NCBI GenBank assembly: GCA_041736705.1
Contig: JBGSTC010000028.1
Span: 20,768 to 84,767, forward strand
Origin: Erysipelotrichaceae bacterium
Lineage (GTDB): Bacteria; Bacillota_I; Bacilli_A; Erysipelotrichales; Erysipelotrichaceae
DNA: 64,000 nucleotides
Direction: 5' to 3'
Below are positions 19,310-54,737 of this stretch, piece by piece (the stretch's first letter is position 1; the number at the start of each line of letters is the position of its first letter). Made by a program: the position numbers and the translations under genes. Under the pieces are notes generated by a model, which saw only the letters and a list, made by a program, of their open reading frames with translations, had not been told where the DNA came from and searched no databases.

Positions 19310-19446
19310 GACGTCACATCCTTTCCGTCATTATCTGTTTCTATTGTATCACTTCTTCGCTTTTTTCAGTGCATTTGTAATTGTGCTATAATGAAACCAA
19401 AGAATAGGCTAGTAGCGCTTTTGCGAATCGCGGAAGGAGGATGGGT

Positions 19447-20571
19447 ATGATACCAATCCGTAAAGCAGAAGTCGAAGACTTATTGAACCATGAGCATCGT
19501 CCGTGCATCACCTTGGTGGTTTCGCCCGGAGTCAAGGAAGTCGGTTTGGCGACCGGGGTCGCCGCGTATCGCGCATTGGTCAGGGATGCCTTGAAACAAT
19601 GCGAACGTTATCATTTGGGACAGATCGAAACCGAAGCGTTGTTTGAACCCTTGAACGCGCTGGAAAAAGATACGATCTTCTGGCAGGAACACCAACACAC
19701 CGTTTTGATCTATCGAAGCGGAGATCTCTTCAGGGTGGAACATCGGATCGCACAGTGGGAAAGCCGTGCGATCGTCGACGATGTCTTCCATCTTCGCCAT
19801 TTGGTCGCCGACCGTAACCTCGATGTGAACTATCACGTGTTGGTCGTCGCCAAAAACAAAGCCGAACTTTATCGAGGGAACTTGGAATCGTTGATACTCA
19901 ACGACACGAAGCTTGTCCAATCGAAGAAGGAAATCACGGAAGCTTCCGACAACATGCGGCAGCAGTTCCACAGCGCCGCATCCCCCGCCCACCGGGGATC
20001 GGGTTCAAACGCGTTTTATACCGGGGCGGGCGAAGACAACGATGAAGCCAGACAAGACCAGATACGCTATTTGAAAGCGTTGGACGAGGAAGTCGTCACC
20101 GTGTTAGGAAAATCGCGGGATCCCTTGGTGTTGGTCGGCGTCGAAGAGACGATGGCGCGCTATCGGAAATTTTCGGATTATCCCAATGTGTCGATCGAAT
20201 CCTTGCGTTATCAAGAGGAATACAAAGACATCGCGAAACTGCATCGGGATACCTTGGAAGTGATCAAAAAAGAAGTCGGGGATCCCAAAGCCGAACTCGT
20301 GGCTAAAATCAATGAAGAGATCGACCATCCCAACGGGAAAGTCGTCGCGGGCTTGGAGAGTTTATTGGCGGTCGCGGAAGAAGGCCGGATCCACAGCATA
20401 ATGATCGCGGTGGACCAGCAATCGATCCGTGGCTATTTCGACCCCGTTTTACTGAAGGTCGTCGAAGACGACCAGGGCGAAGACCTCGTCGAAAGACTGG
20501 TTCGCAACGCCTTGGATCAAGGCGCGTCCATCTATAGCGCCCAGGAGACCCTCGCTTATTTACGATATTAA
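19447..20571 (+). CDS. Hypothetical protein with an eRF1/Pelota-like C-terminal domain (bacterial baeRF-like)
   Basis: C-terminal block GKVVAGLESLLAVAEEGRIHSIMIAVDQ resembles the eRF1 domain-3 / Pelota VxGxxxVxxAxxxGxVxxLLV signature. No other domain recognised. RBS ggaagga gg. The family assignment is tentative. Confidence 0.55.
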   Translation: MIPIRKAEVEDLLNHEHRPCITLVVSPGVKEVGLATGVAAYRALVRDALKQCERYHLGQIETEALFEPLNALEKDTIFWQEHQHTVLIYRSGDLFRVEHRIAQWESRAIVDDVFHLRHLVADRNLDVNYHVLVVAKNKAELYRGNLESLILNDTKLVQSKKEITEASDNMRQQFHSAASPAHRGSGSNAFYTGAGEDNDEARQDQIRYLKALDEEVVTVLGKSRDPLVLVGVEETMARYRKFSDYPNVSIESLRYQEEYKDIAKLHRDTLEVIKKEVGDPKAELVAKINEEIDHPNGKVVAGLESLLAVAEEGRIHSIMIAVDQQSIRGYFDPVLLKVVEDDQGEDLVERLVRNALDQGASIYSAQETLAYLRY

Positions 20572-20589
20572 CAGAAACGGATAGGAAAC

Positions 20590-21510
20590 ATGCGACTGCG
20601 AAGAAGAAGGATGTGGATCCAAATCACAATCGGGGTAACGGTCATCGTCATTGCGGTGGCCGTTACGTTGCGTTTTGCCAACCCGTTGCGCTCCTATCCT
20701 TCCAAAGGAAAGCCGTCGCCGAAACCGACGATCCAGGATGTCCGTTTGCCAAGTCAGCCCGGTACATCGGTCTATGAGAAAAGCGGCTACACGATCGACT
20801 ACAGCCATGCCGACCAAGGCTACATCAGCGTGATCGGACCGCAAGACGATAAAATCAAAAAAGTACAAGTTCTGTTCGACGGGTTTACCTATACCTATGA
20901 CTTAGGGTCGGATCGCTATACGATCCTACCCCTACAAAAAGGGACGGGGGAATACACCGTACGAACGATGAGGAATACTTCGGGGAACGCCTATACGGTG
21001 ACGGCGTCCACAGTGATCAGCGCCACCGTGGCGGACGATTTGACGATCTACCTTTATCCCAACCAGATCGTGGATTACGACCTTCAGACGCTGGCCGTCA
21101 ATAAATCCTTCGAGATCACCCAGGAAGATGAATCCGACATCCAGCGCGTGCATACGATCTACCGCTATGTCATCGACTTGCTGAGCTACGACCAAGCCAA
21201 GGCGGACCGGGCGAAGGACATCTTCATGCTTCCGAACCTCGATGAAACCCTGACCAGCAAGAAAGGCATCTGTTTCGACTATGCGGCGCTGATGACCGCG
21301 ATGCTTCGGGTCCAAGGGATCCCGACCCGCTTGATCACAGGGTATACGGACATCGCCTATCATGCCTGGGTCGAGATCTATCTGGTCGATGTGGGATGGA
21401 TCAATCCCAAGATCTACTTCGAATCTAAGGTCTGGAAACGGGTCGATCCGACCTTCGACGATTCATTCGGGATTTATTTCGGGGACTATCAGACGAAGTA
21501 TACATACTAG
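20590..21510 (+). CDS. Transglutaminase-like cysteine protease superfamily protein, membrane-anchored
   Basis: N-terminal TM. The Cys-His-Asp core region (KGICFDYAALMTAMLRVQGIPTRLITGY…AYHAWVEIYL…RVDPT) is typical of the transglutaminase-like superfamily. Confidence 0.8.
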   Translation: MRLRRRRMWIQITIGVTVIVIAVAVTLRFANPLRSYPSKGKPSPKPTIQDVRLPSQPGTSVYEKSGYTIDYSHADQGYISVIGPQDDKIKKVQVLFDGFTYTYDLGSDRYTILPLQKGTGEYTVRTMRNTSGNAYTVTASTVISATVADDLTIYLYPNQIVDYDLQTLAVNKSFEITQEDESDIQRVHTIYRYVIDLLSYDQAKADRAKDIFMLPNLDETLTSKKGICFDYAALMTAMLRVQGIPTRLITGYTDIAYHAWVEIYLVDVGWINPKIYFESKVWKRVDPTFDDSFGIYFGDYQTKYTY

Positions 21511-21525
21511 GAGGAGGGAAAAACA

Positions 21526-22557
21526 ATGGCGAAAAACAAGTTCCACAGCGACGAGGCGCTCCAATCCTTTTGTACACAAATCGGATTGATCTACGATTCC
21601 GGTCTACCGATGGAGGATGGGTTGCGCATGTTGGAAGACACACGCGTCGAAATCGATGTCGATAAACTGGCGCAGAACCTCGGGAAAGCCGGGAAACTTT
21701 CGTCCGCGATGGCGATGGACCCGGGGTTTCCGCCTGAGTTGTTGCATGCGATGGAAGCGGCGGAAACGGTCGGACGCGAAGACAAAGTCGCTTTCAACCT
21801 TGCCAACCACTACAAACGCCAGGCTGAAACGAAACGGTTCCTCAATGACCTCCTCTTCATGCCGGTGTTGCTGCTCTCCGTCCTGATCGTCGTCATGGGG
21901 GTCTTGAGCTATGCGGTTCTTCCCGTCTTCCAGGAAGTCTATGCCAATCTCGGCGGGGTCGACAACGCCTGGACCGATTTACTGTTAAATGCGGCGAAAC
22001 TGGTCTCGGGGGTCGGATTGGGTTTATTGGTGATCGTGTTGGGTTGGCTCTTGATCCACAGCGTACGTTACGGACTCGGATTGGACCATGAAGACCTGAC
22101 GGAAAAGATGCTGCGCTTCTTTCCCCAAAGTAAACGCCTGGCCGACCTTGCCCGTTTCAGTTTCATCGCCCAAGTCCTGCTTGAAGGCGGCGTGGAAGCC
22201 CGTACCGCCCTCAACCTTTCGATCGCCCAGGTTCCCGAGGGAAGGCTATTGGATTCTCTCAAAGACACCGCGACGCAACTCGCTTCCAACGAAGGTCTCT
22301 ACGAACTCATCACCCAAGCCCATATCTATCCGCCTCTGATGCAGAAAACGCTCAGTTTGGCGGCACGTGCGGGGAAAGTGGATCTGATGATGGAAGAAGT
22401 CAGCCGCAAGACGCAAGCCGATGCCGAACATAGCCTGGCGAAGACACTCAACCGGGTCGAACCGATCTTGGTCATCCTCTTGAGCGCGTTTGTCAGCGCG
22501 GTCTTGTTTTCGCTTCTGATTCCGCTTCTGGGCATCATGTCCGTCCTGGGGTCGTAA
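21526..22557 (+). CDS. Type II secretion / type IV pilus platform protein (GspF/PilC/ComGB family)
   Basis: Two T2SSF-like halves, each with a cytoplasmic domain followed by TM segments. RBS aggaggg. Confidence 0.75.
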   Translation: MAKNKFHSDEALQSFCTQIGLIYDSGLPMEDGLRMLEDTRVEIDVDKLAQNLGKAGKLSSAMAMDPGFPPELLHAMEAAETVGREDKVAFNLANHYKRQAETKRFLNDLLFMPVLLLSVLIVVMGVLSYAVLPVFQEVYANLGGVDNAWTDLLLNAAKLVSGVGLGLLVIVLGWLLIHSVRYGLGLDHEDLTEKMLRFFPQSKRLADLARFSFIAQVLLEGGVEARTALNLSIAQVPEGRLLDSLKDTATQLASNEGLYELITQAHIYPPLMQKTLSLAARAGKVDLMMEEVSRKTQADAEHSLAKTLNRVEPILVILLSAFVSAVLFSLLIPLLGIMSVLGS

Positions 22558-22558
22558 C

Positions 22559-22855
22559 ATGAAACGTTTCGTTTGGATCCTGGGATTCATCGCGTTGCTC
22601 TCGCTCGCGATCCCCGCTGCGGATCAACTGAAACAGGGCAATCTGGAAGAGAGACGGGTACGCACCGAAGAAGCCATCCAACGCGCGCTCAATCTTTGCT
22701 ATGCCCAGGAAGGGTTCTATCCCGCGAAACTCGATTACTTGTTGGATAACTACGGAATCGTCGTCGATTTCGAAGACTACAGCGTCTACTATAAAACGAT
22801 CGGTTCGAACATCCGTCCGGATGTCACCGTCTTTTTGAAGGGGGGACTGAGATGA
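22559..22855 (+). CDS. Small N-terminally anchored protein, putative pseudopilin-like component
   Basis: 98 aa with a single N-terminal hydrophobic helix. Operonic with the GspF-like gene. Confidence 0.45.
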   Translation: MKRFVWILGFIALLSLAIPAADQLKQGNLEERRVRTEEAIQRALNLCYAQEGFYPAKLDYLLDNYGIVVDFEDYSVYYKTIGSNIRPDVTVFLKGGLR

Positions 22856-23304
22856 ACCGTCATGGCTATCGCAATCTCTTCATGCTGTTGCTGATCACGC
22901 TCTATGTGGCGGGGACGGGCTTCATCGTGCTTTACGGTGCACGGTTCTACCGCGACATGGTCGCCCGATCTAATGAGAATCTGCAGGTCCGGACCGCGTT
23001 TTCCTACTTCAACAACCGTCTGAAACAAAACGACGAACAAGGGAAAATCGAAGTGCGCGACGATTCGATCCTCGTCTTCAAACAAGAGGATAGTTTCATT
23101 CTGGTGTATGAAGAAGACGGATACTTGGTCGAACAGAACTCGCTCACCGATGAAATCATGGTCGGGGCGTCGCAGAAAATCGCACGGCTACGCGACATTT
23201 CTTTCACTTCGACCGGGAATACCCTCACCGTCACGTTCAGCGACGACCAAGGGGAAGAACACTCGATCACCTATACCCTGATGAGCGAAGGGGTGATCTC
23301 ATGA
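22852..23304 (+). CDS. Small N-terminally anchored protein, putative pseudopilin-like component
   Basis: 150 aa, N-terminal TM (LFMLLLITLYVAGTGFIVLYGA). The start overlaps the previous stop. Confidence 0.45.
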   Translation: MNRHGYRNLFMLLLITLYVAGTGFIVLYGARFYRDMVARSNENLQVRTAFSYFNNRLKQNDEQGKIEVRDDSILVFKQEDSFILVYEEDGYLVEQNSLTDEIMVGASQKIARLRDISFTSTGNTLTVTFSDDQGEEHSITYTLMSEGVIS

Positions 23305-23726
23305 AACAGAAAAGCCTGTATTCCTTTTTCCTGGAAATCGTCTTCAGTCTGATCCTGCTGACGATCGCGACGATCGTCTCGCTGCTTTTATTCGCCAACG
23401 CCGCGAAGATCGACCAAACCAACAACGCGATCACCAAAATCACCAACGAAATGGTGAAATACAGCGAACGGCTACGCTTAAGCGACGATACCTATCTTCT
23501 TACGTTCGAACCCGCCCAAAGTAATGAAAAAGCGTACTTCTTCGGATATGACGCCAACGGGGAACCGGCGAAGGATAAGGTCGTCTATCAACTCGCCGTC
23601 TATATCCAAAGCGACGCCGATGGAAAGCAGACCTTAAGGGACTGCCGCCTGGAACTGGTCGATTTACGTGATGGAAGCATCGTGACGGGTTGGCATGTCT
23701 CGACCTTGACGGAGGCGCAACCATGA
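23301..23726 (+). CDS. Pseudopilin-like protein with a degenerate prepilin-type N-terminus
   Basis: N-terminus MKQKSLYSFFLEIVFSLILLTIA resembles a class-III signal (F-x-L-E-x-hydrophobic) but lacks the canonical G-1. Confidence 0.45.
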   Translation: MKQKSLYSFFLEIVFSLILLTIATIVSLLLFANAAKIDQTNNAITKITNEMVKYSERLRLSDDTYLLTFEPAQSNEKAYFFGYDANGEPAKDKVVYQLAVYIQSDADGKQTLRDCRLELVDLRDGSIVTGWHVSTLTEAQP

Positions 23727-24184
23727 AATCAAGAAGCGTCACTTTGTTTGGTTTGCCGACCTTATTGACGGTCTTCATCGTCATCACCGTACTCAGTTTC
23801 TCCACGCTCAGTCTCTTAAGCGCGAACAGCGACAGAAATGCCTTGCGACGTACGACCGGGCTGATTGCCACATCGTATGCGATTTCGACGATGGCGGAGG
23901 AAAAACTCGCGTCATTGAGCGCCGAACTGTCCGAAATGATGGAAAATGAACCAAATATCGACGAAGTGCTACCGTCTTTCTTGAACAAACATCCGGAAAT
24001 CACGTATAATAGTAAAACAAGAACACTCGCATACACCCTTGAATTATCGATCCTTCGGATGGATGTGAAACTCAAGGTGGACGACACCGGCGACAGTCCG
24101 CGCCTTACGCGCATCTCATACCGAATGACGACAGAAAACGGACAGGATTATTCCGAAAATGGGGATCCGGTTTGGGGAGGGTGA
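23723..24184 (+). CDS. Small N-terminally anchored protein, putative pseudopilin-like component
   Basis: ATG at 23723 overlaps the upstream stop (ATGA). RBS ggagg. N-terminal hydrophobic segment TLFGLPTLLTVFIVITVL. Confidence 0.45.
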   Translation: MKSRSVTLFGLPTLLTVFIVITVLSFSTLSLLSANSDRNALRRTTGLIATSYAISTMAEEKLASLSAELSEMMENEPNIDEVLPSFLNKHPEITYNSKTRTLAYTLELSILRMDVKLKVDDTGDSPRLTRISYRMTTENGQDYSENGDPVWGG

Positions 24185-24185
24185 C

Positions 24186-25253
24186 ATGAAGATCCAAGAA
24201 CTAGTGGCGGTCGCGATGGACAACAAGGCTTCGGACATTTTTATCGTAGCCGGCTGCCCGCTCTCCATCAAAGTCAACAATGAATTACGCAGGGTCGACG
24301 ACATCAACCTGAAACGGGAAGAGACCGAGCAGTTGGTCGATGAGATCTACGCCTTAAGCCTGCACCATACCAAAGCCAACCTGACGGTCAAAGGGGATGA
24401 CGATTTCTCGTTCGCGATCCCCAACGTCGCGCGGTTTCGGGTCAATGTCTTCATGCAGCGGGGTTCGATGGCGGCGGTGTTGCGCATCGTACGCTTCGAC
24501 ATCCCCTCGGCCAAGGAACTATCGATCCCCGAGGAAATCCTGAAGTTTTCCCGTATCAACAAAGGCTTGGTCATCATCAGCGGTCCTGCCGGAAGCGGGA
24601 AGTCCTCGACGCTTGCGGTCTTGCTTGACGAGATCAACCGTAGCCGTCACGCCCACATCGTGACCTTGGAAGACCCGATCGAATACCTGCATCGTCATAA
24701 CTTAAGCATCGTATCCCAACGCGAGATTTCCTCGGATTGCGAAAGCACAGCGTCCGCTCTGCGCGCCGCCTTGCGGCAAGCCCCCGACGTCCTCTTCATC
24801 GGGGAAATGCGGGACTTGGAAACGATCTCCTTGGCGATGACCGCGGCCGAAACTGGCCACCTGGTCTTCTCCACCTTACATACCCTGGGTGCCGCCAACA
24901 CGGTTGACCGCATCGTCGACGTGTTCCCGCCCCTTCAGCAGCAGCAAGTCCGCGTCCAGTTGTCGATGGTATTGCAAGCCGTCATTTCCCAACAATTGTT
25001 GCGTACGAAGGAAGGCAGTCTGCTTCCCGTCTTTGAAATCATGACCAACGCCACCGCGATCCGCAACCAGATCCGCGAAGGCAAGACCCATCAGCTCAAC
25101 AACACCATCGTCGCCTCCAGCGATGAAGGCATGGTCTCGATGGATAGCATGATTTTGGATTTGGTGAAGAAAAACATCGTCGAAGAATCCGAAGCGCTGT
25201 CACATAGTTTCGATCCTGCGATCATGAAGAAACGCATCAAAGAGATGCGCTAA
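24186..25253 (+). CDS. pilT: PilT/PilU-family type IV pilus (twitching-motility-type) ATPase
   Basis: Walker A GPAGSGKSST, Asp box, His box and the PilT-type AIRNQIREGKTHQL signature. About 355 aa. RBS ggagggtg. Confidence 0.8.
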   Translation: MKIQELVAVAMDNKASDIFIVAGCPLSIKVNNELRRVDDINLKREETEQLVDEIYALSLHHTKANLTVKGDDDFSFAIPNVARFRVNVFMQRGSMAAVLRIVRFDIPSAKELSIPEEILKFSRINKGLVIISGPAGSGKSSTLAVLLDEINRSRHAHIVTLEDPIEYLHRHNLSIVSQREISSDCESTASALRAALRQAPDVLFIGEMRDLETISLAMTAAETGHLVFSTLHTLGAANTVDRIVDVFPPLQQQQVRVQLSMVLQAVISQQLLRTKEGSLLPVFEIMTNATAIRNQIREGKTHQLNNTIVASSDEGMVSMDSMILDLVKKNIVEESEALSHSFDPAIMKKRIKEMR

Positions 25254-25267
25254 AGGGGGAGTGACTC

Positions 25268-26464
25268 TTGAGCTCGAAAGACCGTCCATTAATCGTTCGA
25301 ATGTTTGGCGAACTGGGTTTTTCGTTTGACGTCAAGAAGGTCGACCTCAAAGAAAAACTTGGCAAACATTTGATGTTGCTGCTGGAATACCTGATCTACC
25401 ACCGCGACCAGAACGTATCGAAAGAGAAATTGATCGAGAATCTCTGGAGCGATAGTATGAACCCGGCCAGCGCATTGAAGTTCTCGGTCTTTCGACTGCG
25501 CCAGTTATTGGACGAGATCGACGAATTGACTGGGGTTGAATGCATCAAGACCACCAAGAACGGCTACGCCTTCAACCCGGATATGCCGCTTTGGGTGGAT
25601 ACCGAAGAAGCCGAAGCCATCTGGAAACAGATCAACGACGAGAATGTTACTCGGGCAGAGAAACAAGAGTTGATGAAGAAAGTCATCGACTTGATTCCCC
25701 AACCTTTTCTGAGTTCCAGCACCGCGCAGTTATGGACCTTGCCGGTCAGGGAATATTTCACACACATTTACAACCGATGTGTCCTGATGTATCTTGAGGA
25801 GTTGGAAATTGATCGGAAATACGACGAGATGATGAACACTTCCCAAATCGCTTTACGGATGGACCCATACAATGAAGAGTTTCATTATTATTACATACTG
25901 GCATTGATCGAAACGAAACAGTACCGTAAAGCGATCGAATATTATGAAAGCATCAATCGTCGTTTCTACAAGGAATACAACGCACAGTTGTCTTTGCGCA
26001 CTAAATCCCTCTACAACATGATCCTTTCCCGTGAGGAAGTCAGCAATATCGGGATGGGGGAGCTATTGGAAACCCTGCAGGAAAACAAGGAAGTCGAAGG
26101 CGCATTCTATTGCGAGCATGAAGTGTTCAAGCGAATGTATCAGATTGCCTTGCGTACGGAAGAAAGATCTGACGAAAAGAGTTACGTTTTATTACTGGAA
26201 GTGAAAACCGAAGAGAACGACTTGACTTTGCAGAAAACGATGGAAAGACTGCGCGGTATCATCAACCAATCCTTACGTAAGGGGGATATCTTTTCAAGGA
26301 TGAACCCAACTCAATTCATCCTATTGCTTCCGTGCAAGAACGAAGAGAACGCGCACACGATCGCCAATCGTATCCGCACCTCCTTCCACAAACACAACAC
26401 TTCCGAAACGATTAAGCTCCACTACCATGTTTCTCCGCTTCACAAGGAAGTTGGAACCGTATAA
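25268..26464 (+). CDS. Transcriptional regulator: OmpR/SARP-type winged helix plus BTAD/TPR-like region plus a degenerate (inactive) GGDEF-like C-terminal domain
   Basis: The N-terminus (…LLLEYLIYHRDQNVSKEKLIENLWSD…) matches the SARP/AfsR DNA-binding domain. The C-terminus (IFSRMNPTQFILLLPCKNEENAHTIANRIRTSF) aligns with the GGDEF core (RxGGDEFxxLLP…A..iR) but GGDEF is replaced by NPTQF. TTG start with RBS aaaggggga. Confidence 0.65.
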   Translation: MSSKDRPLIVRMFGELGFSFDVKKVDLKEKLGKHLMLLLEYLIYHRDQNVSKEKLIENLWSDSMNPASALKFSVFRLRQLLDEIDELTGVECIKTTKNGYAFNPDMPLWVDTEEAEAIWKQINDENVTRAEKQELMKKVIDLIPQPFLSSSTAQLWTLPVREYFTHIYNRCVLMYLEELEIDRKYDEMMNTSQIALRMDPYNEEFHYYYILALIETKQYRKAIEYYESINRRFYKEYNAQLSLRTKSLYNMILSREEVSNIGMGELLETLQENKEVEGAFYCEHEVFKRMYQIALRTEERSDEKSYVLLLEVKTEENDLTLQKTMERLRGIINQSLRKGDIFSRMNPTQFILLLPCKNEENAHTIANRIRTSFHKHNTSETIKLHYHVSPLHKEVGTV

Positions 26465-26578: not shown

Positions 26579-27028
26579 ATGCGCAAACATCTCGGATTGT
26601 TGTCGAAAAGCGCGCTAGTCTTCACACTTCCCGCCTTCATGGTATATGATCCCAACGGGATGTGGACCTGGCTGACCTCGGCGCTTTTGATCGGTGTTCT
26701 CTATTTCATCCTATCCCGCCATCGAAAAGAAGTTCGTGCGGTGGTGGATAAGGTTGAAAGAATGCCTGATGGCACCTATTTAGTGACATGGGGGTATATC
26801 AACCCAACTTCCGAACCTGTAAAAGTACAGAACGGGGAAAGTTGTTTACTTGTCAAAGGCGGAACGGCACTCTTGTTATCAAGAGAGATACCGAAGCATT
26901 TTGCTACAGGTCGACATCGGAATGTCATACAAACCATTATTTTAGGAGAAACTTCAGTTGAGTGGATCATCGGAAGTCAAAGGACTTCCAGTAGAGATTT
27001 TGCATCGATTCGATATGAATCGATGTGA
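26579..27028 (+). CDS. Small single-pass membrane protein, paralog of the cytoplasmic anchor domain of the downstream giant adhesin
   Basis: A TM helix (WTWLTSALLIGVLYFIL) is followed by R.R.EV..VV…PDGTxxxTWGY..P…GRHxN…W.I, which aligns with adhesin residues after its C-terminal TM. RBS gaaagggg. Confidence 0.7.
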   Translation: MRKHLGLLSKSALVFTLPAFMVYDPNGMWTWLTSALLIGVLYFILSRHRKEVRAVVDKVERMPDGTYLVTWGYINPTSEPVKVQNGESCLLVKGGTALLLSREIPKHFATGRHRNVIQTIILGETSVEWIIGSQRTSSRDFASIRYESM

Positions 27029-27042
27029 GAAAGGAGAGTACT

Positions 27043-30000
27043 ATGCATCATTTCAAGAAGTTTGCTAATCGTGTATTGAGAATCATGCTTGTCTTCGGAT
27101 TCGCATTGTCGACGATGTCTTTTCCAAGTAGTCGAGTTGTTGCTTTGGATCCACTTCCTCCGGGAACCGTAACGGTTAATAAAACCGCGGCGAGTCTAGG
27201 CGGAGGGTTTTATGAGATCACCCTCACCATAACCGGTGTCCCTGTCGTAAAGGCAAGCGATATCGTTTTGGTCATGGACACCTCCGGAAGTATGTCGAGT
27301 GCGAAGATGAATGCGATGAAGACTGCGGCGAAAAACTTCGTGGATACGATTATCGCCCGTGACGAAGGTCATCGCATCGCAATCATTCGTTTCTCCACAA
27401 GCCCAAGCCTAGTCATGGACTTCTCCCAAAATGCAGCGTCATTGAAAAGTGCAATCGATGGCTTAAGTGCTAATGGGTATACGCATCTCGAGGGCGGTGT
27501 GTATCAAGCACGTTTATTATTGGATTCCGCATCCTCGATCGCATCCAATTCAAATGCGATCGTCGTTCTCGGTGACGGATTCCCGACCCGTGGATATGAT
27601 TTCGACCCGCAATACGTGGGTCCGCTAGATTACGAAATCCGATCAAACGGAAATTGTCGTGTTACCGTCTCGAATGCTAATCGTGACAATCCGTTAAACT
27701 ACACGGGTCGTTACAATTTTGACTATTCTGAAAGTATCTATACTGTCGACACAGACTCGATCTGGGTTGAAAAATCGTTTACCGTTGGGGGCACATGCTC
27801 AAACGGGGATTATGACGATTATGATTTTAATGCCGAATTCTCTTTAGCTGATTCGGTATTATGGCAAGGACAGCAAGCACAAGCCGCCGGAGCGACGATT
27901 TACTCCATCGGTTTGAATGTCGATGCTACCGGCCAACAAATCTTGAGTAGTATCGCAAATGGTGGCTATTATAATGGCAATACCGGGAATCTCGATGCGA
28001 TCTACGATCAGATCGCCTCACAGATCATCAATGCCGGTACCGATGCAGTCATGAACGATAAAATGGGGAGTGCGTTCACATTCCAAAACATTTCGCCGGG
28101 ATATGAGTTGCTTGATATCGTCTATGATCCGGCGACGGAAGTGATGACTTGGGATGTCGGTACGATTGGATCGGAACCCATGGTTGTCAAATACATCATC
28201 AAAATCGATGATGGTTTGCCTACGGGCTATTATCCGACCAATGAATATGCAGAACTGTCATATACGAATATTGAAGGTGACCCGCATGGGGAAGAATTCC
28301 CGAAGCCCATCATCGAGCATATCGTTATCGATGACAATGATGCTCCGGTCTCTATGGATGACACATATGACGTGGACGAAGACGGTAATCTGGTTGTCGT
28401 CAACCCTAACGGTGTCTTATCCAATGATACGGATGCTGACGGCGATTCGTTGACAACTGTTCTGGTTGATGATGTTGACCACGGCACCTTGACGTTGAAT
28501 GCCGATGGAACATTCACCTATGTTCCCGACGCGAACTTCAACGGAGCGGATTCGTTTACATATAAAGCCAATGACTCTCAAGAAGATTCGAATATCGCAA
28601 CGGTCACCATCACGGTTAATCCTGAAAACGATGCACCGGTTGCGAATGACGATGAATATTCCACAGAAGAAGAAGCGCTTCTAACCATTCCGGCGACAGG
28701 CGTTCTTGGGAATGATACGGATCTCGATGGCAATACACTGACAGCGATTGTAGTTGTTGATGTCGCGCACGGTGTCCTCACATTGAACCCGGATGGATCC
28801 TTCACATATTTGCCGGAATTGAATTTTGTCGGCACGGATAGTTTCACCTATAAAGCCAACGATGGTACGTTGGATTCGAATACTGCGAAAGTAATGATTA
28901 CGGTTGGCGCCGCCAATGACGCCCCGATTGCTGTTGCGGATGATTATGAAGTCAATGAAGACAACACGTTGGTCGTCATCGATCCCAATGGCGTTCTAGC
29001 CAATGATTCGGATGTAGATGGCGATGTATTGACTGCCATTCTGGTTGATGATGTCGATCACGGTACATTGACGCTGAATACCGATGGAACATTCACCTAT
29101 GTTCCCAACGCGAACTACAATGGAACGGATACATTTACGTATCAAGCAAACGATTCAACAGCGAATTCCAATGTCGTTACCGTCACGATCGCGATTAAAC
29201 CGATCAATGACGCTCCTGTCGCGGTTGATAATGAATATGATACGGATGAAGATGTTACCTTGAACGTCATCGCACCCAACGGCGTACTTACCAATGATTC
29301 GGATGTAGATGGCGACGTGTTGACTGCCGTTCTCGTTGATGATGTTGATCACGGCACATTGACGTTGAATGCCGACGGAACACTCACCTATGTTCCCAAT
29401 GCGAATTATCACGGAAACGATAGTTTCACTTATAAAGCCTACGATGGTACCGCCGAATCGAATCTAGTGACGGTTACCATTACCGTTCATCCTGTAAACG
29501 ATGCACCAATTGCAAACGTGGATGAATATGAAGTGGATGAAGATAGTAGTCTAGTCGTGATTGACCCGAACGGCGTCCTTGAAAATGATACGGATGCCGA
29601 AGGGGATTCGCTCACGGCAGTCTTAGTTGACGATGTCACCCATGGTACGTTGACGCTGAATTCCGACGGAACATTTACCTATGCTCCGGATGCGGACTTC
29701 CACGGAACGGATACCTTCACCTACAAAGCCAACGATGGATCATTGGACTCAATTGCGACTACGGTCACGATTATCGTACGTCCAATCAATGATCCGCCAG
29801 TAGCAATCACGGATACATATGAAACCGACGAAGATGTAACGCTGAATATCCCTGCGCCTGGTCTTCTCGGAAACGATTATGACATCGATTCTCCGAGTAT
29901 CAGCGTCTATGGTTATGCTTGGAACAGTTTCCAAGGAACACCCAATATCAATCCTGATGGTTCCTTCAGCTTTGTTCCTTACCCCGATTTCGTCGGAACC

Positions 30001-33000
30001 GCATCGATAACCTACTATATTACCGATGGTAATGGAGGGACCGCTTCTGTCGCGATCTCGATCATCGTTAAGCCGATCAACGATGCACCTGTCGCCAATA
30101 ACGACGAGTATTCCACCGATGAAGATGAATTATTGACTGTACCGGCTCTTGGAGTCCTTGGGAACGATACGGACATTGAAGGAAATCTGTTGACCGCGAT
30201 TGTCGTCGTCGGACCTCTCCATGGCGAACTCTTCTTGAACGCCGATGGATCCTTCACCTATCTCCCGGATGCGAACTTCCAGGGAAGCGACTCATTCACC
30301 TATAAAGCGAATGATGGCAGCCTTGATTCCAATGTTGCGACCGTAACCATCAATGTCGGTGCTGTCAATGATGCCCCGGTTGCCGTTGAAGATGATTATG
30401 ATGTTGATGAAGATGGTAGCTTAGTCGTCATCGATCCCAATGGTGTCCTGTCCAACGATTCGGACCCTGACGGAGATTCATTGACGGCGGTCTTGGTTCT
30501 GGACGTTGAACACGGAACGTTGACATTGAATCCTGATGGAACGTTCACGTATACACCGGATGCGAATTTCCACGGTACCGATAGTTTCACGTACCAAGCC
30601 AATGATGGTGATTCTGATTCGAACGTCGTTACGGTGACTATCACGGTCAATCCGGTGAACGATGCTCCGGTCGCCGTCGAAGACATGTATAGTGTCGATG
30701 AAGACGAAACGTTGACCGTTGTGGACCCCGATGGCGTTTTAGCGAACGATACGGATCTCGATGGCGACGCGTTGAATGCAGTCTTGGTTATGGATGTCCA
30801 ACATGGAACCTTGACCTTGAATCCTGACGGAACGTTCACATATGTTCCTGCGGCGGATTTCAACGGAACGGATTCCTTCACCTACAAAGCGAATGATGGC
30901 GATGTAGATTCCAACGTTGTGACGGTGACCATCACGGTCGATGCCGTTAATGACGGACCTTCCGCTACAGACGATGCCTACGATATTAATGAAGACGGTG
31001 CCTTGATCGTTGTGGATCCTAACGGCATACTAGCCAACGATTCGGATCTCGATGGTGATATGCTAACTGCGATCTTGGATACCAATGTTCAACACGGAAC
31101 CTTAACCTTGAATGCAGACGGAACGTTCACCTACATTCCGGAAGCAAACTTCTATGGTACGGATTCCTTCACTTATAAAGCCTATGATGGTACGATGGAT
31201 TCCACTATCGCGACCGTAACGATTACCGTAAATCCGGTAAACGATCCTCCGGTTGCGAACAATGATTACTATGTAACGGATGAAGATACTCCGATCACCA
31301 TCCCGGCGCCTGGCTTCTATGCCAACGACGTCGACCCCGACAACGCGATTTACCATAACATTTATAACTACGTGAATGTCGCTGGTTATCTTGATGCCCC
31401 GTTTGGCGGCGGCGGAACCTTCACCTATACCCCGGCTGCGAATTTCACCGGAACCGCCTCGTTCTTCTATGGAATAAGTGATGGTCAATACTCTTCGCAA
31501 GCGTACATCTACATCACGGTTCACCCGGTCAACGATGGACCTGCAGCCCAAGATGATGAGTATACCATCGATGAAGACACTGTGCTAAGCGTTCCTGCTG
31601 CCGGTGTCATGGAAAACGATTCCGACGTCGACGGACCTTCGCTGAATGTATCCCTGTTGAGCGATGTCTCCAACGGTACCTTGGTCTTGAATCCGGACGG
31701 ATCCTTCGAATATACCCCGGATGCGAATTTCAACGGTGTCGATTCCTTCATATACTCCTTAACCGACGGAACGCTGACAACTAACGCTACCGTAACGATC
31801 ACGGTCAACCCGATCAACGATGCGCCGGTCGCCGAAGACGATGCCTACTCCACCAACGAAGACGTACAATTGGTCATCGCCGCCCCGGGTATCCTGGGCA
31901 ACGATGTCGATGTCGACTCGATCTTCTCGATCGAAGACCATGGACAACCTGCCAACGGCACGGTCGTCGTACAACCTGACGGATCCTTCATCTATACTCC
32001 GAATGCGAACTTCAACGGCGTCGATTCCTTCGTTTATGGAATCACCGATGGAGAAAACACCGACACCGCGACGGTTACGATCACGGTAAACCCGATCAAC
32101 GATGTTCCGAGTGCCGATAATAAGACGTTGACCGTTGCCGAAGGCGGCGCGGGAAATGGCTTGTTCACCGGTTTGGATGGCGACGGAGATGTCTTGACCT
32201 TCAAGATCCTTACCCAACCGGTCAACGGTACGGTCAGCTTCAATGCGACCACCGGAGCCTTCACCTACACGCATAACGGTGGCGAAACCACCAGCGATAC
32301 CTTCACCTACGCCGTCAACGACGGAAAAGTGGATTCCGCTGCCGCAACCGTAGCCATCACCGTAACCCCGGTCAACGATGCCCCGACCGCCGCTGGCGCG
32401 ACGTACACCGTCCAGATCGGATCCGTATTCAGCCGTAACTTCATCCGCGGCGACGCCGATGGCGACCCGCTCACCATCAGTATCGTCAATGGACCGGACC
32501 GCGGCGCAGTCTCCATCGTCGGTGGACAGTTCACCTACACCCACGACGGCGTAACGCTCGACAGTGATACCTTCACCTTCCGCGTCTATGACGGACAAGC
32601 CTACTCGCCAATCCGTACAATCCGTGTCAACTTCACCGCGCTGCCCTTTGAAAACACCGCTCCTGAAGTAACCAATGCCGAATTCGAAACCGAATTCGAA
32701 ACCCCTCTTGATGAGACGTTAGGTGATTTGGGAAGTGATTTCGATGATGATGACTTAACCTTCACCTTAGTCACACAACCTGCACACGGAACCGTAACGC
32801 TGAATGCCGATGGCACCTTCCGCTACGTCCCCGACAACGACTATGAAGGCGATGATAGCTTTACCTACAAGGCGAACGACGGTACCGACGATTCCAACAT
32901 CGCGACCGTGACGATCACCGTCGGCGAAGAAATCATCGTCGATCCGGAACCGACACCTGAGGCGACCTTGCCGTGGTGGTGGTTGCTTGGTTTACTCCCG

Positions 33001-33336
33001 TTCCTCCTCTTCTTAATCCGCCGCCCGCGTCCTGAAGTCCAAGATGTCGTCCTCAATCCTGACGGAACGATCACGACGACTTGGGGTTACCTCGGCCCGC
33101 GTCTGATGCATAAAGATTACGACCGCGACGAATCCATCCTGGAAGTCGTCTCCGGTGAAGTCAAAGTGCTGCCTCCGGTTGAAAAAGTCCCGTACGAATT
33201 CGACCGCGGCCGTCACGAAAACATCTTCAAGACGGTATCCGACAAGAACGCCGTCATCCGTTGGACGATCAAGAAGAAAGCCGAAGAACTCGACAAAGAA
33301 TTGATCGAAAAGATGTTGAAGAAGAATCAGAAATAA
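27043..33336 (+). CDS. Giant cell-surface adhesin: signal peptide, vWA (MIDAS) domain, about 16 tandem ~95-aa cadherin-like/VCBS-type repeats, C-terminal TM and a ~110-aa cytoplasmic tail domain
   Basis: MIDAS DxSxS motif (VLVMDTSGSMS). Repeat consensus NDAPVA.DD.Y..DED..L.V…GVL.ND.D.DGD.LTA.LV…HGTLTLN.DGTFTY.P.ANF.G.DSFTYKANDG. TM LPWWWLLGLLPFLLFLI followed by RRPRPE. RBS aaaggagag before the ATG at 27043; the ORF-track start at 27025 is a GTG inside the upstream stop region. The product is 2097 aa. Confidence 0.9.
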   Translation: MHHFKKFANRVLRIMLVFGFALSTMSFPSSRVVALDPLPPGTVTVNKTAASLGGGFYEITLTITGVPVVKASDIVLVMDTSGSMSSAKMNAMKTAAKNFVDTIIARDEGHRIAIIRFSTSPSLVMDFSQNAASLKSAIDGLSANGYTHLEGGVYQARLLLDSASSIASNSNAIVVLGDGFPTRGYDFDPQYVGPLDYEIRSNGNCRVTVSNANRDNPLNYTGRYNFDYSESIYTVDTDSIWVEKSFTVGGTCSNGDYDDYDFNAEFSLADSVLWQGQQAQAAGATIYSIGLNVDATGQQILSSIANGGYYNGNTGNLDAIYDQIASQIINAGTDAVMNDKMGSAFTFQNISPGYELLDIVYDPATEVMTWDVGTIGSEPMVVKYIIKIDDGLPTGYYPTNEYAELSYTNIEGDPHGEEFPKPIIEHIVIDDNDAPVSMDDTYDVDEDGNLVVVNPNGVLSNDTDADGDSLTTVLVDDVDHGTLTLNADGTFTYVPDANFNGADSFTYKANDSQEDSNIATVTITVNPENDAPVANDDEYSTEEEALLTIPATGVLGNDTDLDGNTLTAIVVVDVAHGVLTLNPDGSFTYLPELNFVGTDSFTYKANDGTLDSNTAKVMITVGAANDAPIAVADDYEVNEDNTLVVIDPNGVLANDSDVDGDVLTAILVDDVDHGTLTLNTDGTFTYVPNANYNGTDTFTYQANDSTANSNVVTVTIAIKPINDAPVAVDNEYDTDEDVTLNVIAPNGVLTNDSDVDGDVLTAVLVDDVDHGTLTLNADGTLTYVPNANYHGNDSFTYKAYDGTAESNLVTVTITVHPVNDAPIANVDEYEVDEDSSLVVIDPNGVLENDTDAEGDSLTAVLVDDVTHGTLTLNSDGTFTYAPDADFHGTDTFTYKANDGSLDSIATTVTIIVRPINDPPVAITDTYETDEDVTLNIPAPGLLGNDYDIDSPSISVYGYAWNSFQGTPNINPDGSFSFVPYPDFVGTASITYYITDGNGGTASVAISIIVKPINDAPVANNDEYSTDEDELLTVPALGVLGNDTDIEGNLLTAIVVVGPLHGELFLNADGSFTYLPDANFQGSDSFTYKANDGSLDSNVATVTINVGAVNDAPVAVEDDYDVDEDGSLVVIDPNGVLSNDSDPDGDSLTAVLVLDVEHGTLTLNPDGTFTYTPDANFHGTDSFTYQANDGDSDSNVVTVTITVNPVNDAPVAVEDMYSVDEDETLTVVDPDGVLANDTDLDGDALNAVLVMDVQHGTLTLNPDGTFTYVPAADFNGTDSFTYKANDGDVDSNVVTVTITVDAVNDGPSATDDAYDINEDGALIVVDPNGILANDSDLDGDMLTAILDTNVQHGTLTLNADGTFTYIPEANFYGTDSFTYKAYDGTMDSTIATVTITVNPVNDPPVANNDYYVTDEDTPITIPAPGFYANDVDPDNAIYHNIYNYVNVAGYLDAPFGGGGTFTYTPAANFTGTASFFYGISDGQYSSQAYIYITVHPVNDGPAAQDDEYTIDEDTVLSVPAAGVMENDSDVDGPSLNVSLLSDVSNGTLVLNPDGSFEYTPDANFNGVDSFIYSLTDGTLTTNATVTITVNPINDAPVAEDDAYSTNEDVQLVIAAPGILGNDVDVDSIFSIEDHGQPANGTVVVQPDGSFIYTPNANFNGVDSFVYGITDGENTDTATVTITVNPINDVPSADNKTLTVAEGGAGNGLFTGLDGDGDVLTFKILTQPVNGTVSFNATTGAFTYTHNGGETTSDTFTYAVNDGKVDSAAATVAITVTPVNDAPTAAGATYTVQIGSVFSRNFIRGDADGDPLTISIVNGPDRGAVSIVGGQFTYTHDGVTLDSDTFTFRVYDGQAYSPIRTIRVNFTALPFENTAPEVTNAEFETEFETPLDETLGDLGSDFDDDDLTFTLVTQPAHGTVTLNADGTFRYVPDNDYEGDDSFTYKANDGTDDSNIATVTITVGEEIIVDPEPTPEATLPWWWLLGLLPFLLFLIRRPRPEVQDVVLNPDGTITTTWGYLGPRLMHKDYDRDESILEVVSGEVKVLPPVEKVPYEFDRGRHENIFKTVSDKNAVIRWTIKKKAEELDKELIEKMLKKNQK
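28330..32925 (+). repeat. In-frame tandem coding repeats of ~285 bp, about 16 units, inside the adhesin gene
   Basis: Recurrent nucleotide blocks such as gatgtagatggcgatgtattgactgcc…cacggtacattgacgctgaat recur at roughly 285-bp spacing. Confidence 0.85.
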
Positions 33337-33346: not shown

Positions 33347-33373
33347 GGACGCTTCGGCGTCCTTTTCTTTTTC
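33347..33373 (+). terminator. Rho-independent terminator after the adhesin gene
   Basis: Hairpin ggacgcttcggcgtcc followed by ttttctttttc. Confidence 0.75.
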
Positions 33374-33440
33374 GCTCATGCGCCTTGTTATGCGATGCAC
33401 AAGAGAGTACAATGAACTTATCCTAGAATGGAGGAAGATC

Positions 33441-35393
33441 ATGAATGATCTGATTTTATGGGCTAGTATCGCAGTGATCGCGCTTTTCGTCCTTTATCTG
33501 TTAATCTTTAAAATCTTCGGTTTACGCGTCATCAATTCCAACGAAGTCGCCGTTGTCGAACAATGGTGGAGTTCCAAGGGATCCTTGAAAGACGCCATCA
33601 TCGCCTTGCACGGGGAAGCCGGTTATTCACCGGATCTGCTGCGTGGCGGGATTCATTTCAAGTCCGTCCTCAAGTATAAAATCCATCGTTATCCTTTGAT
33701 TACCATCCCTCAGGGACAAATCGCCTATATCTTTGCGCGGGACGGCCATCCGCTGTCACCGACCCAGACTTTAGGTAAACTAATCCCCGAAGCCAACAAT
33801 TTCCAGGATGTCCGCGGATTCTTAACCAACGGCGGACAAAGAGGTCCGCAACGCGGGATCATCCGTGAAGGGACCTATGCGATCAACTTGGCGCAATTCA
33901 TCGTCATCACACCCAACGACATCAAGATGATTTCCACCGGCAACCGGTCGGAACGCAATGAAATGGTGTCGATGCAACAGACCTTGGCGGCGCGCAAAGC
34001 GTTCCAACCGGTCATCATCATGGGGAATACGGACAATACTTCCGATTTGATGGGGATCGTGACCGTCCATGACGGGTCACCCTTGGACGAAGGCGAAATC
34101 ATCGCCCCTTCCGTCGGTGAAGGACACGCCAGCTATCAAGATCCGGAAGCGTTCTTGAAACTCGGAGGAAGACGCGGTAAGCAACTTCAAGTCTTGACCG
34201 ACGGCACCTACTACATCAACCGTCTCTTCGCGACGGTCGAATTCCGTCCCAAGACGGTCGTTCCCATCGGTTATGTCGGCATCGTCGTTTCCTTCTACGG
34301 AACCGAAGGCGTCGATACCACGGGTGCGGACTACCACCATGGCGAATTGGTCGCGCAAGGGTCCAAAGGGGTCCTTGAGAAACCGTTGATGCCGGGTAAA
34401 TACGCGTTCAACACGGATGCCGGGAAAGTCGTTCTGGTCCCGACCACCAACATCATCCTGAAGTGGAACAAAGCCGAAACCGGCGACCACAAGTACGACG
34501 AAAACCTGACCGAAGTCGACATCATCACCAAGGACGCCTTCGAACCGGCTCTGCCGTTGTCGGTCGTCATGCATATCGACTACAAACAGGCGCCGTGGGT
34601 CATCCAACGTTTCGGTGACATCAACATGCTGGTCAACCAGTCGCTGGACCCCTTGGTCAGCGCCTACTTCAAAGACGTCGCCCAGACCAAGACCTTGATC
34701 GAACTGATCCAGGAACGTTCCGAAATCCGTGAACGCGCGGTCATGGAAATGCGTGCGAAATTCGCCAAGTACAACCTCCAACTGGAAGAAGTCTTGATCG
34801 GTACGCCGCGCTCCCCGGTCGCCGATGTCCAGATCGAAAACATCCTGACCCAGCTTCGTGAACGTCAGATCGCGGAAGAAAAGAAAGTCACCTACGGAAA
34901 GCAACAGGAAGCCGCCGAACGCGAAAAGAGTTTGCGTGAAGCCCAAGCCGTCGCTGAACAACAAGGTACGCTGACACGTTCCAAGATCCAGATCGAAGTC
35001 GAACACAATACCGGTGCCGCCGCCGCGGCACGTGCCGAACAAGAAGCGAACCAAATCGTTGCGTTGGCGAAAGCGAATGCGACCAGGGTACGCGTCGAAG
35101 GGGAAGCGGAAGCTTCCAAGGAATCCAACATCGGGTTGGCGAAAGCGCAAGCGATCGATGCCCAGGTCAAGGCGTATGGCGGAGCGGAATACCGCGTCAT
35201 CAACGAAATCGCGGATAAACTCGCCGATGCCATCAGCAACGCGACCGTGGACGTCGTCCCCAAGACCATCGTGAATTTCGGCGAGGCACAGGGAAACGAC
35301 AATTCGATCGTCTCTTCCTTGATGAAACTGCTGACGCTTGAAAAACTAGGGGTCAAAGTACCCGGTGTCGAAGAAGTAACCCCGAAGGAGTAA
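33441..35393 (+). CDS. Flotillin-like SPFH/band-7 protein (YqiK-type)
   Basis: N-terminal TM, SPFH domain and a long A/E/Q-rich coiled-coil (EAAEREKSLREAQAVAEQQG…). RBS ggaggaag before the ATG at 33441. The longer ORF starting at 33261 overlaps the terminator and is rejected. Confidence 0.85.
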   Translation: MNDLILWASIAVIALFVLYLLIFKIFGLRVINSNEVAVVEQWWSSKGSLKDAIIALHGEAGYSPDLLRGGIHFKSVLKYKIHRYPLITIPQGQIAYIFARDGHPLSPTQTLGKLIPEANNFQDVRGFLTNGGQRGPQRGIIREGTYAINLAQFIVITPNDIKMISTGNRSERNEMVSMQQTLAARKAFQPVIIMGNTDNTSDLMGIVTVHDGSPLDEGEIIAPSVGEGHASYQDPEAFLKLGGRRGKQLQVLTDGTYYINRLFATVEFRPKTVVPIGYVGIVVSFYGTEGVDTTGADYHHGELVAQGSKGVLEKPLMPGKYAFNTDAGKVVLVPTTNIILKWNKAETGDHKYDENLTEVDIITKDAFEPALPLSVVMHIDYKQAPWVIQRFGDINMLVNQSLDPLVSAYFKDVAQTKTLIELIQERSEIRERAVMEMRAKFAKYNLQLEEVLIGTPRSPVADVQIENILTQLRERQIAEEKKVTYGKQQEAAEREKSLREAQAVAEQQGTLTRSKIQIEVEHNTGAAAAARAEQEANQIVALAKANATRVRVEGEAEASKESNIGLAKAQAIDAQVKAYGGAEYRVINEIADKLADAISNATVDVVPKTIVNFGEAQGNDNSIVSSLMKLLTLEKLGVKVPGVEEVTPKE

Positions 35394-35395
35394 AC

Positions 35396-35770
35396 ATGCA
35401 GCAAATCCGTTTTATCGTATTCATCGCGCTGGCGATTTTGGTTTCCTTGTTCGCGGTGTTGAACGCCGAAGCGATGACGATCAATTTGATGTTCGCGCGC
35501 TATGAAGTCTCGGCGTCGATCATCATCCTGATCTCCGTCATGTTGGGATCCATCCTGACGGTCCTCTTCGGATTATCGACGCGGGTAAAGATCCATTTCC
35601 GCCAACGTGAAACCCGCAAACAGATGGATGCGATGCAGAAGCAACTCGACCTCACCGCCAAGACGCTGGAAACGGTGAAACTCAGCGAAGCGGGTTGGAA
35701 AGCGAAGTATGAAGAAGCCGTGAAGAAAGCGGACCAACCGATCATCGATCCGACAAAGAACCAGGGGTAA
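35396..35770 (+). CDS. LapA-domain (DUF1049-like) small membrane protein
   Basis: Two N-terminal TM helices and a C-terminal coiled-coil tail. Tightly linked to the flotillin gene (3-bp gap). Confidence 0.55.
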   Translation: MQQIRFIVFIALAILVSLFAVLNAEAMTINLMFARYEVSASIIILISVMLGSILTVLFGLSTRVKIHFRQRETRKQMDAMQKQLDLTAKTLETVKLSEAGWKAKYEEAVKKADQPIIDPTKNQG

Positions 35771-53789: not shown

Positions 53790-53882
53790 GGGGAAGTACT
53801 CAAGAGGCCGAAGAGGTGCCCCTGCTAAGGGCATAGGTCGGGTTAAACTGGCGCGAGGGTTCAAATCCCTCCTTCCCCGCCA
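53790..53882 (+). tRNA. tRNA-Ser (anticodon GCT), class II with a long variable arm
   Basis: Manual fold: acceptor GGGGAAG/CTTCCCC, anticodon stem TGCCC/GGGCA with loop CTGCTAA, long extra arm, T-loop GGTTCAAATCC, genomically encoded CCA. Confidence 0.85.
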
Positions 53883-53895
53883 TTTTCAAAAACAT

Positions 53896-53971: not shown

Positions 53972-53975
53972 TTTT

Positions 53976-54049: not shown

Positions 54050-54053
54050 ATGT

Positions 54054-54705: not shown

Positions 54706-54737
54706 ATAATCATTTAGCACTTAGGGAGGAATATGTT

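Follow-up and report, generated by a model that had tools for sequence, protein, structure and literature searches.

A 64-kb window of contig JBGSTC010000028.1, i.e., the whole stretch of DNA analyzed here, encodes a large adhesin of an uncultured Erysipelotrichaceae bacterium. The protein consists, in this order, of a Sec signal peptide, a vWA head, 16 repeats, a Pro/Glu linker, a 17-residue Trp-rich helix, the motif RRPRPE, and a C-terminal domain of 99 amino acids (aa). Its anchor, i.e., the last 132 aa, is among the most constrained sequences of the locus while the ectodomains are swapped, and a paralogue of the tail domain is found in a small "headless" membrane protein encoded immediately upstream, beside a particular regulator. 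The reading that we lean towards, drawn from comparison of sequences and from predicted structure, is that the tail would stay in the cytoplasm to retain and dock the adhesin, with the headless paralogue as its probable partner and a possible link to the regulator.

Identities to the window were measured part by part in seven related loci (loci are numbered here with the prefix L). The anchor retains 85–98.5% identity, the neighboring SPFH protein 89–99%, the pilus ATPase 83–96%, the regulator 76–93%, the last repeat of the adhesin 64–92%, and the small protein 63–78%. The adhesin head is only 20–24% identical where it has been replaced, and 70% identical in L002. In the close relatives, the entire neighborhood is syntenic. 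The region of the helix is strongly conserved, following the pattern LPWWWLL(G/A)LLP(F/L)LL(F/L)LIRRPRPE, and the 33-aa region that holds it is 100% identical in L016 and L017. Conservation of this degree is seldom seen in a passive anchor, which would suggest a specific contact of the helix within the membrane.

Very large adhesins with a C-terminal membrane segment and a cytoplasmic end are known, namely Ebh/Embp and the mollicute adhesins P1 and P140/P110. The topology, which an earlier note on this DNA had described as unusual, is thus uncommon but not unique. The likeness to these proteins is limited to topology: no sequence or domains are shared, and their tails are not this Ig-like domain. 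They do lend some credit to a simpler account, in which the adhesin has a plain membrane anchor, the tail is a passive stopper or spacer without partner or signaling, and only ancestry links it to the small protein and the regulator. Membrane-anchored giant adhesins without LPXTG exist (e.g., Ebh; PMC5031765 for the absence of LPXTG), the fold of the tail is an Ig-like sandwich of a generic kind that shows no catalytic features, and homologues in Clostridia have no small paralogue adjacent to them. We nevertheless regard this account as improbable, because a passive anchor normally keeps hydrophobicity only, not the identity levels recorded above for the anchor and its helix region, and because of the conserved gene order described below.

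The domain of the small protein is 33% identical to the adhesin tail (BLASTP, E 8e-13), and these two are the only copies of the tail domain in the window. By the positive-inside rule, the domain of the small protein is predicted to lie on the same, cytoplasmic, side of the membrane as the adhesin tail. The regulator encoded further upstream is SARP-like and has NPTQF where GGDEF would be expected. Its highest 19-residue hydropathy value is 0.66, which indicates that it has no membrane segment and is cytoplasmic.

We found 17 homologues of the small protein, several of which have a vWA adhesin encoded downstream. Distant homologues are approximately 28–44% identical where measured (L007/L008, L009–L011, L036, and L039). 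In L007 and L008, a homologous regulator (59% identity in L007) is located upstream of the small protein and a tandem-95 adhesin downstream. In L009–L011, the same positions are occupied by a regulator (38% in L009) and an adhesin with vWA, GBS104-like Ig, and tandem-95 domains; in L036, by a regulator (42%) and an adhesin with vWA and Flg_new_2 domains; and in L039, by a regulator (33%) and another large surface protein. The gene order regulator, small protein, large surface protein is conserved in distant relatives, and the surface protein is vWA-headed where its head can be read. That the order is kept down to approximately 28% identity of the small protein, and in differing genomic neighborhoods, speaks against a linkage of these genes by ancestry only. 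In L009 and L036, the adhesin has no tail and terminates in a plain sorting signal (LPDTS/IPDTS, a membrane helix, and basic residues); hence, the small protein and the regulator form the constant pair. In the clade of the window, the adhesin appears to carry, in addition, the anchor type that is seen in Clostridia. At L005 (1–3781), two adhesins flank the small protein: the upstream one ends in PEPTPQA, helix, RRPRPQ, and tail, and the downstream one has a head with vWA and GBS104-like Ig domains.

The small protein gene and the adhesin gene probably form one transcription unit. The stop codon of the former lies 14 nucleotides (nt) 5′ of the adhesin ATG, no terminator-like site intervenes, and the strong hairpin after the adhesin is the only such site on the plus strand from the regulator to the SPFH gene. 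A promoter-like site (33385–33413) precedes the SPFH gene (33441–35393), which suggests that the latter is transcribed separately. Downstream of the adhesin, the interval 33441–35770 encodes a 650-aa SPFH/band-7 protein (YqiK/flotillin-like) and a membrane protein with a LapA_dom domain. The SPFH/flotillin-like gene was considered as a member of the unit; it is an unlikely one, since the terminator and the promoter-like site intervene and the distant cassettes do not contain the gene. Coordinates of the features are collected in the table.

Features of the adhesin locus, with positions in the 64-kb window
Feature	Position	Strand	Basis and remarks
Regulator: winged helix (Trans_reg_C), BTAD/TPR, degenerate GGDEF-like end	25268..26464	+	Pfam, NCBIfam; first gene of the cassette
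149-aa "headless" membrane protein	26579..27028	+	Basic N-terminus, two hydrophobic segments, RHRKE, tail-domain paralogue
Sec-type signal peptide MHHFKKFANRVLRIMLVFGFALSTMSFPSSRVVA/LD	27043..27147	+	Read from sequence and hydropathy scan; cleavage site putative
vWA domain core with MIDAS DTSGS	27259..27609	+	Pfam VWA/VWA_2, residues 73–189; head extends to about residue 430
Stalk of 16 tandem-95/Big_9/cadherin-like repeats	28336..32931	+	Pfam, NCBIfam, profile built from the repeats themselves; residues 432–1963
Acidic Pro/Glu linker GEEIIVDPEPTPEAT with TPEAT	32932..32967	+	Counterpart of IPQTG-type motifs; alignment A4/A5
Trp-rich membrane helix LPWWWLLGLLPFLLFLI with stop-transfer RRPRPE	32968..33036	+	Hydropathy 1.86; AlphaFold2 helix
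99-aa tail domain and stop codon	33037..33336	+	Seven-strand Ig-like sandwich, C-terminal amphipathic Lys-rich helix
Intrinsic terminator-like hairpin GGACGCTTCGGCGTCC with T-run	33347..33372 (hairpin 33347–33362)	+	Directly after the adhesin stop codon

The anchor itself was analyzed by hydropathy and structure prediction. The two highest 19-residue windows of the adhesin on the Kyte–Doolittle scale are residues 1974–1992 (1.86), which contain LPWWWLLGLLPFLLFLI, and residues 59–77 (1.66), at the start of the vWA domain; a value of 1.51 was obtained for the signal peptide. An AlphaFold2 model of the last 232 aa (19 aligned sequences, one row left out) has a mean predicted local distance difference test score (pLDDT) of 89. 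It comprises the last repeat as a β-sandwich, the linker as a coil, a helix over WWWLLGLLPFLL, a second sandwich, and a terminal helix. The membrane helix occupies model residues 114–125, and the second sandwich begins two to three residues past the RR pair. The fold of the tail was predicted with a pLDDT of 95. Since the hydrophobic segment is modeled as a helix between two separately folded sandwiches, it is not a strand of a domain. These results bear out the C-terminal Trp-rich transmembrane segment and the RRPRPE stop-transfer proposed in the earlier note, and exclude the misprediction of a β-strand that it had allowed for.

The ectodomain has a net charge of −278 and contains 2.2% Lys and Arg, as compared with 20% in the tail, which is Cys-free. 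The 15 residues ahead of the helix carry a charge of −5, and RR follows the helix directly. This distribution of charges fits a cytoplasmic tail. We infer this location from the positive-inside rule, the composition, and the presence of a single helix.

Several observations weigh against our reading of the tail. A fold search with the tail returned generic Ig-like matches only and gave no functional clue. Three proteins (P0024, P0030, and P0032) have a signal peptide, two to six tandem acidic copies of the domain, and no membrane segment, so the domain is used in secreted proteins too and is not intrinsically cytoplasmic. In many homologues from Clostridia, the hydrophobic stretch comprises 28–34 residues, has a Pro at its center, and lacks a basic flank, so that it could form a re-entrant hairpin in these proteins. 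Finally, adjacency of the small paralogue is confined to the Erysipelotrichales clade; at the Clostridia loci, none was found within 7 kb. The copies of P0030 and P0032 carry Cys residues and are followed by eukaryote-type Ig domains; none of the three proteins matches a curated family in its copies of the domain.

The secreted copies and the long Pro-kinked stretches would also agree with a different topology, with the C-terminal domain outside the cell, a re-entrant or peripheral hydrophobic segment, and binding to the wall or to the membrane surface in the manner of WxL or GW modules. We consider this topology very unlikely for the adhesin. Its hydrophobic stretch has 17 residues, which is too short for a hairpin, and is directly followed by RR. 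Where the domain comes after a membrane segment, it is basic and contains no Cys, as opposed to the acidic, Cys-bearing secreted copies, and short versions with neither a signal peptide nor a membrane segment exist, although several of them may be truncated gene calls. In scans with curated domain models, no WxL, GW, SLH, or LysM model matches the adhesin.

The sequence preceding the helix raises yet another possibility. The earlier note had recorded a PEPTPE stretch before the transmembrane segment. The stretch is present but is more than a spacer, as it aligns with IPQTG/VPTTG-type motifs. In homologues, the helix is preceded by an acidic stretch with (I/V/T)-P-x-(T/A)-(G/A), e.g., IPQTGG, VPTTGG, IPETGG, IPLTGG, IPQAGG, or TPEAA. 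In the alignment, the Pro is nearly invariant, and EPTPEAT of the window sits against EPIPQTG. Judging by the correspondence of TPEAT to the IPQTG-type motifs of Clostridia homologues, the anchor looks like a cell-wall sorting signal to which a domain has been appended. A sortase, or another membrane transpeptidase or protease, might then cut at the TPEAT/IPQTG-like motif and join the adhesin to peptidoglycan, with the folded basic domain replacing the short charged tail for retention.

The order of the motif, approximately 17 hydrophobic residues, and RR is that of a sorting signal, homologues show IPQTGG, VPTTGG, IPETGG, and IPLTGG at the aligned position, and cassette adhesins of L009 and L036 bear plain LPDTS/IPDTS. 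Against such an extended signal, the motif is degenerate in the clade of the window, being TP(E/Q)A with T, Q, N, or D in the next position, i.e., without the Thr and Gly of LPXTG. TPEAT lies 122 residues from the C-terminus rather than within the last 35–40 or so, and the hydrophobic segment and RR are followed by 99 folded residues instead of a short basic tail that ends the protein. No LPXTG-type motif was found near the C-terminus of the adhesin, and [LIVN]PX[TA]G occurs only inside the repeats (IPATG and VPAAG at residues 549 and 1517). No curated Pfam or NCBIfam model, including those for sorting signals, matches the last 138 aa, even at E 0.1. A scan of the 64-kb window revealed neither a sortase-like open reading frame (ORF) nor an LPXTG protein, which is weak evidence as to the genome. 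On balance, sortase processing is possible but unlikely.

Were cleavage to occur, the membrane remnant could act as a signal comparable to the streptococcal C-peptide, an option that we find as doubtful as the cleavage itself. C-peptide signaling after sortase cleavage is documented, according to the statement in PMC11502775 that cites Hall et al. (2019; PMC6662179). In Streptococcus gordonii as here, a membrane-embedded adhesin C-terminus could inform a regulator. The streptococcal C-peptide, however, consists of a helix alone, which a histidine kinase senses. The present system would have no kinase and would instead combine a folded domain with a headless paralogue and a SARP-like regulator that has a degenerate GGDEF-like domain.

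Other known C-terminal signals do not account for the anchor. The PEP of DPEPTPE is not conserved in orthologues (EPTPTPQ, GPQPTPQ, and TPDPTPQ) and is not C-terminal, unlike in PEP-CTERM proteins. On motif and model tests, the readings of the C-terminus as a PEP-CTERM, RTX/type I secretion, WxL, GW, or SLH element were all rejected, and the statement of the earlier note that LPXTG, SLH, and type I secretion signals are absent holds.

A profile made from the two copies of the tail domain was searched exhaustively against 1.84 billion representative proteins. It matched 79 representatives at E ≤1e-3, with adhesin-type tails at 1e-41 to 1e-48. Word-indexed homologue searches found no protein with the tail as a query and only five with profile A2. 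The domain, of approximately 90 aa, has the signature DGT(Y)T.xWGY, a conserved Gly, F..G.H.N.F, and a late Trp (alignment A2, 27 members). The adhesin tail carries this signature, its conserved residues being G10, W16, G17, Y18, G40, F55, G58, and W76. Its placement is characteristic as well: an acidic (I/V/T)Px(T/A) motif comes first, then a Trp-rich helix, and the domain directly after the helix.

The representatives whose domain is complete fall into four classes. C-terminal copies occur in 27 proteins of approximately 290 to 2800 aa, and in all of these (27/27) a hydrophobic segment precedes the domain. Small proteins with a membrane segment ahead of the domain number 20, and short proteins without one number 12, several of which may be truncated gene calls. 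Tandem or internal copies were found in 14 proteins, including signal-peptide proteins with up to six copies. The net charge of the domains that follow a membrane segment is +1.7 and +0.65, and that of the secreted tandem copies, which often bear Cys, is −3.2. No form of the domain matches Pfam or NCBIfam models in the libraries dated 2025–2026, and literature searches found no description of the anchor or the tail domain; the paper on Embp gives no detailed account of the anchor. Hence, the conserved C-terminal tail described in the earlier note is indeed folded and strongly conserved, but it is not private to the adhesin: it has a paralogue upstream and belongs to a wider, uncurated family.

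Species-representative genomes were scanned with the narrow alignment A3. The form with helix and domain occurs in metagenome-assembled genomes of Erysipelotrichaceae and Erysipelotrichales, and in Eubacteriaceae, Christensenellaceae, Eubacteriales, and other Bacillota. Cultured carriers among Eubacteriaceae are Alkalibacter mobilis (WP_195682389.1) and A. saccharofermentans. The adhesin tail is 36–49% identical to the tails from Clostridia and only approximately 30% identical to the neighboring small protein. The sole contig assigned to "Burkholderiales" (L029, JBLNCA010000006.1) is close to the Bacillota contig L027 in domain layout, pre-helix sequence, and anchor, and is probably a binning error. 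At seven loci of the Christensenellaceae type (L025, L026, L027, L029, L030, L033, and L035), a surface protein with the helix and domain anchor is directly followed by lgt, the gene of prolipoprotein diacylglyceryl transferase, and five of the seven then carry DivIVA-like, LuxR-type, and MMPL genes. This adjacency may reflect shared ancestry rather than function. On a high-GC contig (L012, 7778–8300), a 99-aa call with a Cys-bearing domain of the secreted type overlaps a 93-aa call with a signal peptide; the two calls probably belong to a single secreted protein that a frameshift or a miscall has divided.

The retention and docking role that we favor for the tail can be put as a sequence of events. 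The adhesin would be exported by Sec, displaying its ligand-binding vWA head on the stalk of 16 repeats. Translocation would halt at the 17-residue helix, and the basic Ig-like tail would fold against the inner face of the membrane. There it would act as a retention and docking module that locks the adhesin in the membrane. The headless paralogue would be its partner, with contacts between the helices and between the domains, and by way of this partner the tail might be coupled to the SARP-like regulator with its degenerate GGDEF, so that adhesin display would be organized or reported inside the cell. A stronger version would see here an unrecognized mode of anchoring and monitoring in Bacillota, with the tail, the headless paralogue, and the regulator forming an outside-in circuit, one that would respond to the insertion, processing, or mechanical load of the adhesin by adjusting its expression. 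This version is speculative, and we consider it unlikely.

Turning to the ectodomain, the adhesin ORF, the longest of the region, spans positions 27025–33336 on the plus strand when counted from a GTG codon. The ATG at 27043, located 6–7 nt 3′ of AAAGGAGAG, yields a product of 2097 aa. Exactly this protein is present in public assemblies, annotated merely as "Ig-like domain-containing protein" or "VCBS repeat-containing protein." The domain searches suggested in the earlier note gave matches above the cut-offs for the VWA, Big_9, and Cadherin families. In Pfam, residues 73–189 score 51.4 bits with VWA (PF00092; cut-off 23.8) and 57.8 bits with VWA_2 (PF13519; cut-off 27). The metal ion-dependent adhesion site (MIDAS) motif DTSGS at residues 79–83 conforms to DxSxS. 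Candidate downstream MIDAS residues, assigned from sequence with no structural alignment, are T147 (in GYTHLE) and D178 (in VVLGDG). The signal peptide and the MIDAS-bearing vWA head postulated earlier are confirmed.

The nearest relative of the vWA head with a solved structure is the fimbrial tip subunit Mfa5 (E 1.2e-14). The adhesin shares a vWA/MIDAS head with the tip adhesins Mfa5, GBS104, and RrgA, and its cassette relatives also match GBS104-like_Ig. The tip adhesins, however, are pilus subunits joined by sortase (in the case of Mfa5, by strand exchange), whereas the present adhesin is a stand-alone, stalked protein with a membrane helix and a predicted intracellular domain. FIVAR, GA, and DUF1542 are not among its Pfam matches.

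The repeats of the stalk were counted in three ways. Pfam finds 16 stretches of Big_9 (1011 bits in total), 16 of Cadherin_4, and 15 of Cadherin_5; the NCBIfam tandem-95 model NF012211 finds 16 stretches (1034 bits; cut-off 90); and a hidden Markov model built from the repeats of the window also counts 16. The earlier note's count of about 16 tandem repeats of approximately 95 aa is confirmed. According to Tandem Repeats Finder and a repeat finder, the repeat period is 96–97 aa, or 291 nt, decreasing to 276–285 nt toward the 3′ end. The mean identity among repeats is 58% at the amino-acid level.

The earlier note had further proposed that the repeats are similar enough at the DNA level for their number to vary by recombination. 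This part was not borne out. DNA identity among the repeats is only 60–75%, and the longest exact stretch common to two of them is 26 nt, with none reaching 28 nt. The comparison of copy number that the note had called for gave different answers at two levels. No strain-level change was seen in the 90%-identity cluster of the adhesin, where the protein has 2097 aa in five independent assemblies and 2083 aa in one. Between species, the gene at the same position has 16 repeats in the window, 13 in L002, whose vWA head is the same, 14 in L016 and L017, where the head is different, and two in L001 and L018–L020, which have other heads. The case for frequent change of repeat number by recombination is thus weak: the ectodomain is modular over evolutionary time, but the array is not obviously unstable.

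Retention by a folded module has a functional analogy in the adhesins of the LapA type, which use one. With the RTX adhesins BapA, LapF, and LapA, the protein shares long arrays of Ig/cadherin-like repeats and a match to NCBIfam adhes_GNV_Cterm (residues 1639–1961, 252 bits; cut-off 180), which covers repeat-like sequence only. RTX adhesins have GGxGxD and a type I signal and lack a Sec signal peptide. Here, the RTX motif GGxGxD was not found in the adhesin sequence, a Sec signal peptide is present, the host is a monoderm, and retention would be C-terminal, at the cytoplasmic membrane. The adhesin is best read as a Sec-exported, fibrillar protein of a monoderm, and its ectodomain, with a vWA head and 16 repeats, is an ordinary member of known families.

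The interval upstream of the regulator (19441–25253) encodes baeRF-family and transglutaminase-like proteins and then, directly adjacent to the regulator, a cluster resembling ComG/type IV pilus genes. Members of the cluster are a T2SSF platform protein, a PilT-like ATPase (AIRNQIREG), and four small ORFs, each hydrophobic at the N-terminus and one of them DUF4860. It was considered as a partner of the adhesin and set aside, since it is syntenic in close relatives only and the pilus cluster of L009 is a different one, located on the opposite strand.

Elsewhere in the window, within 53790–60200, a cluster of tRNA-Ser, tRNA-Asp, and tRNA-Gly genes (53790–54049) is followed by a low-GC stretch (0.36–0.40, as compared with approximately 0.51 elsewhere), which is probably an acquired island. 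Its products are an FtsX-like permease, an ABC ATPase, a methyltransferase, and an aspartyl protease, and a SPASM-domain protein is encoded just past it (60929–62257). At 2886–4922, an ammonium transporter and a P-II nitrogen regulatory domain are fused in a single ORF of 678 aa, which lies upstream of the genes for the two subunits, large and small, of glutamate synthase.

Surface anchors of monoderm bacteria are usually classed as LPXTG/sortase, lipoprotein, or non-covalent wall modules (LysM, GW, SLH, and WxL). The anchor of the adhesin shares with an LPXTG sorting signal a Pro-containing motif, approximately 17 hydrophobic residues, and basic residues, and its sister cassettes use LPDTS/IPDTS; it differs in its degenerate motif far from the C-terminus, in the folded domain, and in the absence of a curated match. 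The combination of a sorting-signal-like helix with a conserved, predicted intracellular Ig-like domain would represent a further recurrent anchor type in Erysipelotrichales, Eubacteriaceae, Christensenellaceae, and other Bacillota. The anchor stays nearly constant while heads and stalks are exchanged, and the same domain occurs on a small membrane protein beside a particular regulator, an arrangement that is open to experimental test. The hypothesis that follows is that the tail domain serves these bacteria, of which many come from gut and anaerobic-digester communities, to retain their adhesins and perhaps also to sense them. For practical purposes, the tail domain is a new marker for surface proteins that escape LPXTG-based searches.

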